From the sequence record HE978309: a stretch of DNA of 64,000 nt; one strand, given 5' to 3'. Within the stretch, counting starts at the first letter, position 1. Every line of letters starts with the position of its first letter. Under the pieces are notes generated by a model. That model did no database searches. It had not been told where the DNA came from and saw only the letters and a program-made list of their open reading frames with translations. This stretch comes from Enterobacteria phage GEC-3S. A program made the position numbers and the translations under genes. This document shows, piece after piece, positions 27,163 through 51,300 of this stretch.

Positions 27163-27193
27163 ATTATAAGGGGATCACCGATCCCCTGTCAAC
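27163..27193 (-). promoter_or_regulatory. Sigma70-like early promoter with palindromic spacer
   Basis: TTGACA - GGGGATCGGTGATCCCC - TATAAT on minus strand. Confidence 0.6.
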
Positions 27194-27204
27194 AACTTTT
27201 TGAA

Positions 27205-27681
27205 TTATTTTTCTTGATGCTCGCGCTCGTACTTTTCGAAATAAAATTCTACTGGCTGATCGTGGATTGAAAGCAAGCCAAAGCGTTTAGCCGCTCGCAA
27301 TCCCATATTGCGCTGAATGTACTTCTGGAAGTTCTCGCGTATACACTTACGCCAGTATTCTAAGCCCATACAGCTTTTATAAAGATTGCATTGCACACAC
27401 GCCGGATTCATGTTATCAAGTATATCATGTTCCGGTTTATGCATTCCTACAACCTTATACTTCCACGATCCATCATCATTACGGGCAATTCGTCCATTTT
27501 CATCATAGACTACCTTTGAGCGTCGCAATACTGGTTTGATATGGTCTGCGTGCCAGCGATCCCCTAGTTCCTCGCCACAATAGGCACAACGCCCACCGTA
27601 TTTCATTTTCAGGATCTGGCGTTGCTCTTTCTTTGACAATTTTTTAGGTTTAGGGGCTTTCGCCCCTTCATTATCACACAT
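27205..27681 (-). CDS. HNH homing-endonuclease-like protein
   Basis: CAYCG ... WHADHIKP ... CVQCN (HNH-type Cys/His motifs); overlaps 3' end of ligase gene by 8 nt. Confidence 0.7.
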   Translation of the reverse strand: MCDNEGAKAPKPKKLSKKEQRQILKMKYGGRCAYCGEELGDRWHADHIKPVLRRSKVVYDENGRIARNDDGSWKYKVVGMHKPEHDILDNMNPACVQCNLYKSCMGLEYWRKCIRENFQKYIQRNMGLRAAKRFGLLSIHDQPVEFYFEKYEREHQEK

Positions 27682-29170
27682 CGAATACCTCTTTTACTGT
27701 ATTTGCCGTGGTCTTGTCGTAGCGAATACGTTTGATGATCGGGAGAAATAAAGAGAACTCCGGTTCATCTTCTTTACGTGATTTGCTGCGAATGTACCCG
27801 TTGCATGTCATCTCAATGACTTTTCCGACCAGGTTATGCCGTTCAGCCCATAACATTTCTCGGTCAAGTTCATTTCGACGATCGAACGGAATTACACGTT
27901 CAGTACCATCATCACCTTTTTCGGTTGTAGTGTCGGTTAATCCCGATCCGGTGTTAGTCATCATTCGTCCGCACGCACTACGGACAGTAAAACCGCCTAC
28001 CTTATTGGGGTCTTTACTATGCGGATATACATCAACAATTTCCGCGTCGAAGTCAATAACTTCTTTAAATTTAACCTGATCTTTACTGCGACGATCTTCA
28101 AATACACCATGTAAATTTTTAAGGATAATACCTTCTAAGCCCATGTTTACATAGCGATGATATACTTCGCGAGCTTCATCGATATTGTTAACTACGGTAT
28201 TTTCGATTATCTGAACACGAGGATCGTTAAGTTCTTCAACAATCTGTTTTAGTTCTTCGAATCGATCTTTATATTGCTTCGTTGCTTTCTCGTTTCCGTA
28301 ATACACATCACGGTCGATAACATCCCAGACAGTGTAAACAATACATTGGGCTTCTTCTTTTGGAATAGTTCCTTTCAGTGATTTGTTGAGGATACCATTT
28401 CCGGTCTGACGATCTGCAACAACGGATTCTTTCACCGCTTCCGCTACTGGCGTTAATGGCATTTCCTCTTCTTCAAATATCCATGACAGAGTACCATCAT
28501 AAACGCTCTCAACGAAGTTCTGCGCTGGTGTTTGCGAAAGGGTAGGCATATATACCAATTCGCCATCTAGAACAATTCCACGGCCTCGTAGACGCTCTAA
28601 AACCGCAAACAAATCATCAAGCCCTTGATAGGTATTACCTGAGCGGGTATAGATTGCTAATGTTTCCCCGTCAATATCAGCCATACCACGAGCGCCATCG
28701 CTTTTAAGTTGTGCATACGCCGGATACTTGATATTAGAAATAGTCTTATCAGAACATGACGATGCAAGGTGGCACGGTTGCTGAGGGATCAGTTTCTTCC
28801 ATACCTTGTTTGCAGTGGTAGCGGAACAACCGCATTCCAGGTCACGATTCAGGACCATCATTGCAACTTTAGCATCATCCTCTGACAAGCAAGTCAGAGT
28901 ATCGGTAACTAGCTGTAATGCTGCGTTGCCAGTTACTTGACGCGTGGCAAGTTTATTTTTAAAGACCTGTAATGCACCGGATAAAGACAATACAGACGAA
29001 TAGCGAGATGGTTTATCGTATTTCTTTACGCCAAACGTAACCTGTTTGCAATATGCCAGATAAAAGCATTCTTTCAGCGTTTCATTGCTCGCGGATTCTT
29101 TCAGAATCTTTTCTTTCAGCGATGTTTTGTCTGTTGCTGCAAGCTGATTAATGATATTAAGAATTGACAT
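27674..29170 (-). CDS. 30: ATP-dependent DNA ligase gp30
   Basis: Aligns with T4 DNA ligase (AQLKSDGAR KxDG site; TRQVTGNAA; NRDLECG; ANKSLKGTI.KEEAQC; EGIILKN); ATG at 29170 with GAGGTG RBS. Confidence 0.93.
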   Translation of the reverse strand: MSILNIINQLAATDKTSLKEKILKESASNETLKECFYLAYCKQVTFGVKKYDKPSRYSSVLSLSGALQVFKNKLATRQVTGNAALQLVTDTLTCLSEDDAKVAMMVLNRDLECGCSATTANKVWKKLIPQQPCHLASSCSDKTISNIKYPAYAQLKSDGARGMADIDGETLAIYTRSGNTYQGLDDLFAVLERLRGRGIVLDGELVYMPTLSQTPAQNFVESVYDGTLSWIFEEEEMPLTPVAEAVKESVVADRQTGNGILNKSLKGTIPKEEAQCIVYTVWDVIDRDVYYGNEKATKQYKDRFEELKQIVEELNDPRVQIIENTVVNNIDEAREVYHRYVNMGLEGIILKNLHGVFEDRRSKDQVKFKEVIDFDAEIVDVYPHSKDPNKVGGFTVRSACGRMMTNTGSGLTDTTTEKGDDGTERVIPFDRRNELDREMLWAERHNLVGKVIEMTCNGYIRSKSRKEDEPEFSLFLPIIKRIRYDKTTANTVKEVFDV

Positions 29171-29636
29171 TTTCACCTCGTTTTGTTAAACGTTCACGAA
29201 TATCATTGAGGATACTACAAAATTCCGATTCAGTCAATATAGTCTTTAACGGATCTGTTCCACCTATACTATGACGCAATTTCTTATTTCCGGTAGCGAG
29301 TAATGCTTTACAAAATTCTGGGTTATTCCGTGCCATCGTAACAAATGCCAGATGTACCAGTCTGTAATAATGCTCACTCATTCGATGAATCGGGCGACCC
29401 TGAAAATATAGCATGTGATTCTCTATCTTTTCAGTCCTTCCGGTTCTTTTTGCTTTGCCACCGTGCATCAAAAAGATTTCTCTTTGTCTCTGGGGGTTCT
29501 TGAATCTTAATCCCTGTAAAAATCCTTCTGTGCTGTTAATATCGCAACCAAATAGACGGAATGGTCTTTTATTGAAATTACTCAATTCACCCGATGGATA
29601 AGGTCCACCCGCATAGATATCAATTTCATAAGTCAT
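29157..29636 (-). CDS. NADAR (YbiA-like) domain protein
   Basis: SNFNKRPF, STEGFLQGLRF, KALLATGNKKL...GG resemble NADAR family motifs; function inferred. Confidence 0.5.
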   Translation of the reverse strand: MTYEIDIYAGGPYPSGELSNFNKRPFRLFGCDINSTEGFLQGLRFKNPQRQREIFLMHGGKAKRTGRTEKIENHMLYFQGRPIHRMSEHYYRLVHLAFVTMARNNPEFCKALLATGNKKLRHSIGGTDPLKTILTESEFCSILNDIRERLTKRGENVNS

Positions 29637-29790
29637 TGAAACTAATCTCGCTAATCAGAGAGAACGGATCATAATCGTCATTAGGAATATCGATAGTAAT
29701 CGAATGAGGATTTACCCATACACCAAACTGGTCTTCTTCGGTGAATACTTCGGTATGGATTTCGTGGATGTTTACATTCATAGTTTTCAT
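29626..29790 (-). CDS. Hypothetical small protein (54 aa)
   Basis: ATG with AAGGAA RBS; stop overlaps NADAR start; below ORF-track cutoff. Confidence 0.4.
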   Translation of the reverse strand: MKTMNVNIHEIHTEVFTEEDQFGVWVNPHSITIDIPNDDYDPFSLISEISFNDL

Positions 29791-29839: not shown

Positions 29840-29866
29840 ATAGGCGGGATTATTTCCCGCCGTTTA
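29840..29866 (-). terminator. Hairpin terminator after gene 31
   Basis: GGCGGGA-TTATTT-CCCGCC followed on minus strand by U-rich tract. Confidence 0.5.
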
Positions 29867-29873
29867 AAAATCA

Positions 29874-30197
29874 TTAACCGTAAACTACCACAATATTCTG
29901 TTTGTGCGTTACAGTCCATTTCAGGTCGATCTCTTCTTCCTTCTTAACGCCGTTAATAACGTCTGGATGAGGAACTTTATTCATCTTTCCGTGTGGCAGT
30001 AGAACAGTTTTACCCAGCAATTCTTTATCTACAGTTTCACCAATATCAATAATCTTACCTACCAGCGGAATCTCGCCCATAGTGCGCTTTTGCTCAATAA
30101 TGATCCCCATAGAGCTTTTTACTTCGGTCCCTGCGCTTTCTGCTTTAGCTTCGATAATTACATAATCACCAAGTGCTTTAGGAGTTTTAACGGTCAT
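29874..30197 (-). CDS. 31: Co-chaperonin gp31 (GroES-like)
   Basis: 107 aa; GEYVI/GDYVII, SGLIIG-like, VPHP motifs shared with T4 gp31; T4 position. Confidence 0.7.
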   Translation of the reverse strand: MTVKTPKALGDYVIIEAKAESAGTEVKSSMGIIIEQKRTMGEIPLVGKIIDIGETVDKELLGKTVLLPHGKMNKVPHPDVINGVKKEEEIDLKWTVTHKQNIVVVYG

Positions 30198-48316: not shown

Positions 48317-51300
48317 ATGGCAGATTTTTCTCAACATTTCAAGGCCACATTTGGCTTTGACGCTGGTAATGAAAAGGTCGTCAATGTAGCATTGGCTGAT
48401 AAGAATGTCAACACCGATGCGGTCAACGTTGAATTTTTCAATTACCATAATGGTATTACTCAGTATGACACAACTCGCGGTTATGATCAATACGGAACTA
48501 CAATCTATCAAAACCGTCCGTATTATGCAAAAGAAGATATCACAAAACCAGCAGGTGATTTTGACCCGACTAAATGGCAAGCACTGCGCACGGACCCACG
48601 TTGGGATTATATTGCAGCAACTTCCGGTGATACTCCTTTACAGTCTGGTGATTATATCGCAGCAGATGGTCAATTTGCAAACTTGACTTTCTCTATGCCA
48701 ACTAAACCAGCAGAGGGAGACACTATAACAGTAAAAGATATCGGTGGCAAGTGTGGTGTTAACGAATTATCGTTCTTGAGTTCAGGACATGAGTTTTACC
48801 ATAACGGTAATGTGTATAACCGAAAATGGTATTGCACTACCCCGTATGCAATGAACTATTTCATCTTTGTTCGTAATCGTTGGCATGTTTATCAGACAGG
48901 AACAGAGCCACGCGGTGTGTACGCACAGCCAGCGATTGATGCTATTCAAATGCAGAATGGTGATCAGGTCTTTCGTCGTAGTTCGTTGGGTAATATTACC
49001 TTAGTGCTTCCTAAGTTTGCCAACAATGGCGACATGATCCAGACTACAGACCTTGACGGATTAACCGCAACCAACCACGTTACGGTTAAAGTTCATGAGC
49101 ACGCAGAAGAACAATCAATTGGCACGTCCGGTCTAAAAGAGATTATCGGTAAGCGTAGCGGTCATGGTGTATTCATCTTTGACAAGACGGAAAACTTATG
49201 GCGTTTGTGGGATGGTGATCAGTCTGTTCGTCTTAAACCGATCATCGATGACACTCGCTTGCAACCTAATAGCTATGTTGCCGTATTTGGTGATCGTGAT
49301 GTTACTCTGACGCTGCCGACCAATGTCGAGCCGGGTGATCGTATTCAAGTTTCTATGCAGTATATGCACGGAAACCAGAATTGCCGTATTATCACCGCCA
49401 CAGAGGATACAAAAATCCTTATGCAGAAAAACATGGTTCAGTTTCCTAAGCGTAGCGAGTACCCATTCAATGGGACCGATACATGGACGGGAGTTTCTGA
49501 ATTGTCTTTCAACGCTGCAAATGATTATGTACCTTATCTGGAGTTCTCTTATTCAGAAGGTGATGATGGTAAGAAATACTGGTTGGTGGCACATGCTCAC
49601 CCGATTGTAGAACGAGTAGATCCGACTCGTAAAGACCGTGTTGGTGTAATTGCACTGGCTACCCAGGATGAAACAAACAAAAACCATGAAGATAATCCTA
49701 GCGACGAAGTTGCGGTGACTCCAAAGGTTCTGGCTAATAAAACAGCCAACGAAACTCGACGCGGTATTGCTCGCATTGCGACTCAAGCGGAAACGCATCA
49801 AGATACTGGTTCTAACTTCCTGGATGATGTTATCGTTACGCCTAAAAAGTTAAATGACTGTGTTGCTACCGAAGCCCGTCGTGGTGTGATGGAAATTGCA
49901 ACCCAGCACGAAACCAATGAAGGTTTAGACGATACCCGCGCTATTACTCCTAAGAAATTAGAAGAACGTCGCGCTTCCGAAGATCTCGCTGGTATTGCTG
50001 AAATTGTTCAGGTTGGCGGTAGTGCTGCCGCTCGACGTGGCGAAGCTGGTACAGGGATCTATAACATCAATGACCATGCTAAAATTGTTACGCCAAAAAA
50101 CATCAACGAAGTCAAGGCGACCGAAACTTCCCGTGGTGTTGGCTATCTGGCAACTGACGCGGAAGTGCAAGGGGCTACAGAATCAACCCCGCAAGATGCT
50201 TTACTAATCACTACTCGCACGCTAACTAAACGTACTGCTACCGAATCGCGCACTGGTATCGCTGAAATTGCAACTCAGGAAGAAACAAACTTAGGTCAAA
50301 GTGATAACCATATCATCACGCCTAAAAAGCTGCATACTCGCCGCGCAACGGAAACTTTACATGGTTTAGCAGAAATTGCAACTCAACCGGAGTTTGACGC
50401 AGGTCTTGACGATGCTCGCATTTCTACCCCATTGAAGATTAAAACCTTCTTTGAGAATGCACAGCGTTTGAAAGTAGATCCGACTCAGGGGCTTAACCTT
50501 ACTGGTGATTTGTGGCAAGGTATCATGATCAGCGGTCTGGATGCAACCGAAGACACAAAAGGTGTCGCTAAAGTTGCTACTACTCAGCTTACGGATGCTG
50601 GTCAAGATGATACTACAATCATCACGCCTAAAAAGCTGCAAGGCAAAAAAGCCACCGAAGGTAAAGAAGGTATTATCCGCGTTGGTACTCAAGCCGAAAC
50701 CGTGGCTGGTACACTGGCTAATGTAGCAATTTCTCCGAAGAACTTCAAATATGTTGTTCAGACAGAGGATACATGGAAAGCAACCGAAGCGCGTCGTGGA
50801 TTCTTGAAAGTTGCTACTCAGGAAAACTGTTTTGTTGGTGACAATCTGCAAGGTTCTACTCAAGAACTAGGAAACTACCAGCATGACGGAATTGCTGTTA
50901 CCCCGAAAGGATTAAACTATGCACTTGCTAATTTCTTACCTAAGATGGCAACCGCTCAGAATAGTTTGAAATTGGGTAACGTAGAGGCCGCTAAATGGGC
51001 GCGTAGAGACATTGACCAGACCATAGAGAGCAATTACACGTTTAATAAAAACGTTAACGTGAAGGGCGATTTAGGGTGCTTAAAATCTGGTTCCTTTGAA
51101 ACTCTTTCTGTGACTAAGAACTCTACTGATGTTCCGAGTAATGGTCATCTGGTGTTGGGTAAGCGTGGAGTTGACGGTCACACCGGAATTACTCTGCATG
51201 GTACAACCGCATCGGAAGGCATGAAAAACTCGTGGTCTATTATCGTTGGTGGTACTGGAACAGCGCAAGTTGTTGATAGTGATGCTATCGCTTTCGGTCA

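Follow-up and report, generated by a model that had tools for sequence, protein, structure and literature searches.

Gene 30.3 and its surroundings

The window, a stretch of 64,000 nucleotides from Enterobacteria phage GEC-3S (sequence record HE978309), carries a counterpart of T4 gene 30.3 within the gene order pseT, cd.2, cd, 31.1, 31, 31.-1, 30.3, 30 and HNH (Table 1). The genome that hosts it is that of a Krischvirus, an RB49/Phi1-like relative of T4: the 5-kb stretch around 30.3 is 97.5-98% identical to 58 Krischvirus genomes, and the encoded protein is 99.4% identical to RB49 gp30.3. A first-pass annotation of this DNA had proposed a 159-aa ORF with NADAR/YbiA-like motifs at this position. 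The ORF is genuine, and all of the quoted motifs are found in its translation, namely S19-N20-F21 followed by F26, T36-EGFLQGLRF-45, and L112-LATG-116 followed by G125-G126.

Because a word-indexed homologue search yielded just 13 proteins, an exhaustive search with the family profile was used, which matched 1665 cluster representatives at E<=1e-3. In addition, a tblastn search with the 30.3 protein found it in 1508 phage records. Each of the 58 Krischvirus records contains a full-length, indel-free copy of 480 nt with 95.8-99.6% identity, and pairwise dN/dS values among six Krischvirus alleles lie between 0.02 and 0.05. The gene is thus under strong purifying selection, and the low dN/dS together with the intact ORF in the 58 records argues that its function has been maintained. 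An ORF that arose by chance is excluded by the match to the Pfam family PF08010 described below, by the occurrence in 1508 phage records and among 1665 representatives, and by the low dN/dS.

On the upstream side, the stop of 31.-1 lies within 30.3, with an overlap of 11 nt between the two genes, and therefore they probably belong to one transcription unit. A promoter scan found 11 sites, compared with 11.4 expected from shuffled sequence, and since this count shows no excess, no operon promoter is claimed; the RB49 record has no promoter annotation in the 30.3 region either. On the downstream side, 30.3 lies directly 5' of the gene for an ATP-dependent DNA ligase on the same strand, which agrees with the position that the first-pass annotation had given it. 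The ligase start in Table 1 is the one annotated in five related genomes (Phi1, RB49, ECD7, Makalu_001 and G2248). A GTG start suggested by the ORF lister was rejected, as this GTG is part of the GAGGTG Shine-Dalgarno sequence and the five related genomes annotate the ATG. The overlap between 30.3 and the ligase gene fits co-transcription, and the two genes may also be translationally coupled.

Table 1. Positions in the window of gene 30.3, its direct neighbours and selected elements of its protein
Feature	Position	Strand	Basis
31.-1, 54-aa ORF of unassigned function	29626..29790	minus	phrog_15277, E=4.6e-42; named 31.-1 in RB49 record AJ550428
30.3 / adfN orthologue, 159-aa phage-type NADAR domain protein	29157..29636	minus	ATG to TAA
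E37 codon, catalytic glutamate	29526..29528	minus	T4 gp30.3 pairwise alignment; hhalign with YbiA profile
R44 codon, arginine at the pyrophosphate-coordinating position	29505..29507	minus	T4 pairwise alignment; hhalign with YbiA profile
H122 codon, last-strand His typical of the phage gp30.3 branch of the NADAR superfamily	29271..29273	minus	invariant in alignments A1 and A3
C-terminal alpha-helix, residues 136-152, intact	29181..29231	minus	AlphaFold2 model, pLDDT 94
Overlap of 30.3 3' end and gene 30 start, 14 nt	29157..29170	minus	GAGGTG Shine-Dalgarno just upstream of ATG
Gene 30, ATP-dependent DNA ligase	ATG at 29170	minus	DNA_ligase_A_M, 2.8e-22; phrog_114, 4.5e-141

Family, fold and active-site residues

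With the Pfam NADAR profile PF08719, which the first-pass annotation had named as a check, the 30.3 protein reaches 15.5 bits (E=0.021) and stays below the gathering threshold of 35.1 bits; it thus belongs not there but in the sister family PF08010 (Phage_30_3, 'Bacteriophage protein GP30.3'), where it scores 132.5 bits (cut-off 36; E=1.2e-38) over profile positions 2-138 of 138. It also matches phrog_652 (E=4.5e-45). The NCBIfam model 'NADAR family anti-phage protein' gave a score of 13.8 bits, below its cut-off of 240, and PADLOC returned no match.

As the PF08719 score was below threshold, the superfamily link was tested by profile-profile and fold comparison. Alignment with hhalign of a 48-sequence gp30.3 profile (A3) and a 23-sequence profile of the E. 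coli YbiA family (A2) gave a probability of 97.7% and E=2.3e-12 over 143 columns. An AlphaFold2 model built from the family alignment has a mean pLDDT of 94.1, and a Foldseek search of the PDB with this model retrieved YbiA (2b3w; E=6e-6, TM 0.66, probability 1.00) and the P. nicotianae NADAR with ADP-ribose (8bau; E=6e-3, probability 1.00), all remaining matches having probabilities <=0.04. Furthermore, YbiA was the top and sole relevant match when the family HMM was compared with the PDB (E=0.021). A D-alanine carrier-protein ligase (7vhv, E=3.8e-4), which came out on top in a single-sequence phmmer search of the PDB, is a spurious match: the hit is lost with family profiles, which find YbiA alone, and the fold searches contradict it. 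The same faint DltA echo occurs in NCBIfam (E=0.24).

The 30.3 protein is thus almost certainly a member of the NADAR superfamily and of its phage gp30.3 branch, a level of confidence that we attach to the family and fold assignment alone. The NADAR/YbiA-like reading of the first-pass annotation holds at the level of the superfamily, to which both hhalign and Foldseek point; at the family level PF08719 was missed and PF08010 is the model that fits. As cited in PMC11543638, T4 30.3 has been placed in the NADAR superfamily on bioinformatic grounds, and the classification of this superfamily, with its YbiA fold, is attributed to de Souza and Aravind.

The residues that matter for NADAR activity can be located by alignment. 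E37 corresponds to E36 of T4 AdfN (the gp30.3 protein of T4), E88 of E. coli C7 DarG1, E43 of the P. nicotianae NADAR and E48 of YbiA, and the glutamate at this position has been described as catalytic (PMC11825919, PMC11543638). H122 is the residue regarded as the signature of the phage gp30.3 branch, YbiA-type proteins having Glu and DarG1-type proteins Asp at this place (PMC11543638, PMC11125620). Across 169 domain hits, which consist of the top representatives of the exhaustive profile search and the earlier homologues, 161 have the Glu and 157 the His. Besides these two residues, the SNF and QxxK/R motifs are unaltered in the 30.3 protein, and its alignment with T4 gp30.3 extends to the last T4 residue.

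The position of R44 is occupied by Lys in T4 AdfN (K43), DarG1 (K95) and YbiA (K55), and among the same domain hits Lys is found in 158/169 (~94%) and Arg in 6/169. The structure of the P. nicotianae NADAR and mutagenesis of E. coli C7 DarG1 indicate that this Lys coordinates the phosphates of ADP-ribose (PMC11543638). All six of the Krischvirus alleles that were checked have Arg at this position. Arg also occurs in P0002, a metagenomic relative with 68% identity, in P0144, and in the Lazarusvirus AB-Navy97, an Acinetobacter phage whose protein shares about 50% identity. The modest novelty of the locus is this natural Lys-to-Arg active-site variant, fixed in the Krischvirus lineage, and nothing else in it is new.

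Comparison with T4 AdfN and other NADAR proteins

The window protein is 38% identical to T4 gp30.3 over the full length (E=8e-30). T4 gp30.3 was identified genetically as AdfN, the 'anti-DarT factor NADAR' (Johannesman et al. 2025, PMC11825919), and work published in 2024-25 showed that it acts against DarTG1 as a DNA guanine ADP-ribosylglycohydrolase. The purified protein takes ADP-ribose off DarT1-modified DNA (PMC11825919), hydrolysis of guanine-ADP-ribose on DNA has been observed in vitro (PMC11125620), and the T4 NADAR acts on G-ADPr and not on T-ADPr or C-ADPr (PMC11125620, PMC12945103). T4 adfN is both necessary and sufficient against DarTG1: a T4 delta-adfN phage is DarTG1-sensitive, and adfN supplied alone in trans from a plasmid restores the growth of RB69 on DarTG1 hosts (PMC11825919). 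T-even phages with full-length 30.3 are resistant to DarTG1, whereas RB69, in which a frameshift in 30.3 truncates the allele with loss of the last helix, is sensitive (PMC11825919). The E36A and K43A variants of T4 AdfN are impaired, K43A giving partial rescue, and full action of the protein occurs only during T-even infection (PMC11825919). In an independent transposon screen, T4 30.3 was conditionally essential, with insertions lost on DarTG1 hosts (10.1101/2025.11.20.689424).

The counter-defence role that the first-pass annotation had suggested has therefore been demonstrated experimentally for the T4 orthologue (PMC11825919; 10.1101/2025.11.20.689424; PMC11125620), so both the function and the feature, as gp30.3/AdfN and PF08010, were already known. 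A literature search for DarTG together with RB49 or Krischvirus found nothing relevant. The ORF is the RB49-type orthologue of T4 gp30.3/AdfN in a Krischvirus, and we consider it likely that its product, a small stand-alone enzyme with the NADAR fold, would defeat DarTG1 by hydrolysis of G-ADPr. The orthology itself, the fold, the triad of Glu, a basic residue and His, the C-terminal helix and the purifying selection were established by the present analysis; the substrate of the enzyme, its chemistry and its effect on DarTG1 are predicted by analogy with publications on T4 AdfN and DarG1.

The two phage proteins belong to the same Pfam and PHROG families, are of similar size (159 aa here and 152 aa in T4), are encoded in the genome block between genes 31 and 30, and share the catalytic Glu, the family His and the intact C-terminal helix. 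Unlike T4 AdfN, the window protein has R44 in place of K43, its gene has no internal 30.3' ORF, and it comes from a Krischvirus, outside Tevenvirinae; furthermore, genes 30.1 and 30.2 are missing, and therefore 30.3 is in direct contact with the ligase gene. Antitoxin NADARs of the DarG1 type form the BC4488 family and are represented by the proteins of E. coli C7 and Geobacter lovleyi (8bat) (Schuller et al. 2023, PMC11543638). In contrast to these, the window protein has His and not Asp in the last strand and, with its 159 aa, is without an N-terminal extension; since its gene is flanked by 31.-1 and the ligase and no darT1 gene is adjacent, it can be called an 'orphan antitoxin'. Unlike DarG1, T4 gp30.3 is unable to neutralise DarT1 when the cells are not infected (PMC11825919, PMC11125620).

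Phage orphan NADARs are also found in T5-like phages and Vequintavirinae, where AdfN(Bas32) and AdfN(Bas60) counter DarTG1 (PMC11825919). These two belong to other branches of the NADAR tree, while the window protein is of the T4-type branch; BLAST with T4 AdfN missed them, only DELTA-BLAST brought them up, and their activity does not require infection (PMC11825919).

A mechanism for the Krischvirus protein may be outlined along the same lines. Host DarT1 ADP-ribosylates the N2 amino group of guanine in phage DNA, which is known to block replication. The alignment suggests that gp30.3 would bind the ADP-ribose with R44 replacing the usual Lys at the pyrophosphate, after which E37 and H122, placed at the distal ribose, would drive hydrolysis of the N-glycosidic bond between ribose and guanine, a step for which the T4 E36A variant provides support. 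The products would be free ADP-ribose and unmodified guanine in intact DNA, as published for T4 AdfN and DarG1, so that replication could resume and the Krischvirus phage would escape DarTG1. Several points weigh against this explanation, including the identity of just 38% to the characterised T4 protein, the Arg in place of the phosphate-binding Lys, the position of Krischvirus outside Tevenvirinae, given that T4 AdfN acts fully only in T-even infection, the sub-threshold scores with the Pfam and NCBIfam NADAR models, and the lack of a PADLOC match.

Alternative explanations and the anti-DarT repertoire

The first-pass annotation held that the place beside the ligase fits a role in DNA repair, and 30.3 might indeed be pictured as a repair accessory that works with the adjacent enzyme, for example by cleaning up lesions before sealing. 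The 14-nt gene overlap, with its probable co-transcription, fits this picture, as does the fact that 30.3 and ligase both lie within the gene 31-30 block in T4, AB-Navy97 and Klebsiella phage Matisse, and that the homologue of Caulobacter phage CcrPW lies near an RNA ligase. However, comparison with five other genomes (T4, AB-Navy97, Matisse, Vibrio phage VH7D and CcrPW) reveals that direct adjacency is a Krischvirus feature: two genes separate 30.3 from the ligase in T4 (order 30.3, 30.2, 30.1, 30), one gene intervenes in AB-Navy97 and three small genes in Matisse, the intervening small genes being unrelated, and the VH7D homologue has a deoxyribonucleotidase and gp47/46 as neighbours and no ligase in its vicinity. 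Because it is restricted to Krischvirus, the adjacency is no argument for a repair partnership, and the overlap of stop and start codons is a sign of co-expression and not of a functional partnership. T4-like genomes share this location because they have inherited the synteny of the gene 31-30 early block, and the ligase is a syntenic neighbour of 30.3, not a required partner. Moreover, the published NADAR reaction regenerates intact guanine and leaves neither strand break nor nick (PMC11543638), so no ligation step is required, and plasmid-borne T4 adfN is enough on its own to restore RB69 on DarTG1 hosts (PMC11825919). The repair role is accordingly not supported, and we regard it as very improbable.

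The substitution at position 44 raises two further alternatives. If R44 were a mark of specificity, the enzyme could act on another substrate, such as soluble immune signals derived from ADP-ribose, ADP-ribosylated RNA, or the adducts of a different ADP-ribosyltransferase. That NADARs also remove G-ADPr from RNA (PMC12945103) and that the Lys-to-Arg change is fixed in a subclade would be in line with such a shift; nevertheless, the only tested member of the family, that of T4, acts on G-ADPr DNA with a clear DarTG1 phenotype (PMC11825919; 10.1101/2025.11.20.689424), and the remaining active site (E37, H122, SNF and QxxK/R) is unaltered, which makes another substrate unlikely. Alternatively, loss of the phosphate-binding Lys could have produced a weakened or inactive allele comparable to the defective one of RB69. 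The K95R variant of E. coli C7 DarG1 no longer rescues cells from DarT1 in vivo, although it still hydrolyses in vitro (PMC11543638), and K43A of T4 AdfN rescues just partially (PMC11825919). A weakened allele is hard to reconcile with the low dN/dS and the intact full-length ORF in 58/58 Krischvirus records, with the invariance of R44 in six alleles and its recurrence in the Acinetobacter Lazarusvirus phage at about 50% identity, or with the C-terminal helix, which is missing in RB69 and present in the model of the window protein; this explanation is thus very improbable. Least credible of all is a YbiA-type N-glycosidase that acts on intermediates of the riboflavin pathway. The fold is shared with E. 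coli YbiA, and one phage record names a homologue 'swarming motility YbiA-like protein', but the PF08719 score is sub-threshold, and the D-x-Y-W-G-x-G-G motif and the Glu of the last strand, which are invariant in A2 and distinguish E. coli YbiA (2b3w) and PF08719, are missing from the window protein and A3, where H-S-I-G...T-I-L-T-E-x-E-F occupies the position of the YbiA motif. Removal of C-ADPr is, in addition, a property of the YbiA family and not of the T4 phage NADAR (PMC12945103).

Returning to an anti-DarTG1 enzyme of the AdfN type, we read R44 as a maintained, functional variant and not as a defect. It is conceivable, if unlikely, that the combination of Glu, Arg and His marks an AdfN subclade with altered properties that comprises Krischvirus and AB-Navy97; such proteins could, for example, be tuned to another DarT1 family or adduct, or work without the T-even co-factor on which T4 AdfN depends. 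Otherwise, the Lys-to-Arg swap would be neutral.

That T4-like phages carry an 'orphan antitoxin' enzyme which reverses DNA ADP-ribosylation by DarTG1 is already established for T4. What the Krischvirus phages contribute is a 30.3 gene kept under strong constraint with Arg at the very place where a Lys-to-Arg change disables a bacterial antitoxin in vivo. For phage therapy and host-range considerations, an intact 30.3 would predict DarTG1 resistance of RB49-like phages. With regard to other anti-DarT factors, tblastn with T4 AdfA (61.2) against the window and against RB49 positions 1-56000, a range that takes in the syntenic 61-41 interval, found no match; should AdfA indeed be lacking, gp30.3 could be the sole anti-DarTG1 factor in Krischvirus phages. 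For T4 AdfM, the tk.4 macrodomain protein directed against DarTG2, tblastn identified a 44%-identical RB49 homologue at 50040-50495, outside the window.

Gene arrangement around 30.3

In the window, overlapping stops and starts link the 54-aa ORF 31.-1, 30.3 (the orthologue of T4 gp30.3/AdfN), the DNA ligase gene 30 and an HNH endonuclease gene. ORF 31.-1 is conserved, as judged by its PHROG match, and its 3' end shares 11 nt with the start of 30.3; searches of Pfam and NCBIfam gave it no assignment. At the other end, the ligase stop and the ATG of the HNH gene share an 8-nt overlap. Because a terminator-like hairpin separates gene 31 from 31.-1, the arrangement suggests that 31.-1, 30.3, 30 and HNH may form a separate unit, for which no promoter was identified. 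In T4, alt.1 and alt follow gene 30, whereas Krischvirus has the HNH gene at this site, which suggests that in Krischvirus a free-standing, homing-type endonuclease has been inserted behind gene 30.

Features flanking and including 30.3 in the window
Feature	Coordinates	Strand	Description
Sigma-70-like site	27163..27192	-	TTGACA, 18-nt spacer, TATAAT; perfect consensus, 12/12
HNH endonuclease gene	27205..27681	-	158 aa; Pfam HNH, 5e-6; phrog_2118, 8e-55
30.3	29157..29636	-	159 aa
ORF 31.-1	29626..29790	-	54 aa; phrog_15277, E=4.6e-42
Terminator-like hairpin	29843..29861	-	GGCGGGAAATAATCCCGCC then T-run; between gene 31 and ORF 31.-1
Gene 31	29874..30197		

The sigma-70-like site lies directly downstream of the HNH gene and points toward the next minus-strand ORF. 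In the promoter scan, promoter-like sites were no more frequent across the region than in shuffled sequence.

The family histidine and relatives of gp30.3

The phage histidine has been described as a substitute for the YbiA-type glutamate (PMC11543638, PMC11125620). In hhalign, by contrast, H122, the family histidine of the window protein, is aligned to His126 of the E. coli NADAR-fold protein YbiA, part of a near-invariant E-H-T motif, and a gap faces Glu125 (window residues 119-123 against YbiA 122-127). This pairing appears to depart from the published His-for-Glu equivalence, and either YbiA residue may be the true counterpart of H122.

Two tandem gp30.3-type domains occur in some family members of ~290 aa, and multiple matches were noted for the cluster representatives P0022, P0031, P0058, P0087 and P0014, the last of which (480 aa) carries three partial gp30.3-type matches. 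In the tandem members, the first domain hit retains the Glu and the Lys and stops short of the His position, and in the second domain the Glu is replaced by N, Q or A and the Lys is sometimes changed to Arg. These proteins may be pseudo-enzyme or regulatory duplications.

A single-sequence PDB search with the window protein also gave a borderline-significant match, over residues 45-151, to the D-alanine carrier-protein ligase DltA (7vhv, E=3.8e-4), which was judged a chance similarity since neither family profiles nor the fold search reproduced it.

Comparison with T4 and RB49

An internal out-of-frame ORF, 30.3', is annotated within T4 30.3 (T4 sequence L001:4403-4630), whereas the other frames on the same strand of window 30.3 contain no ORF of at least 40 aa. 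T4 gp30.3 is 152 aa long in NC_000866 (L001:4308-4766), and the construct in the Toxins 2024 methods is given as 'residues 1-208' (PMC11125620); this length, 208 aa, is that of T4 gp61.2, and the published range may be a typo or refer to another accession.

Neither the window nor RB49 positions 1-56000 yielded a homologue of the anti-DarT factor AdfA (61.2). T4 Tk.4, a macrodomain protein lately named AdfM (anti-DarTG2), has a 44% identical homologue in RB49, which lies outside the window (NC_005066 50040..50495; L015:241-696).
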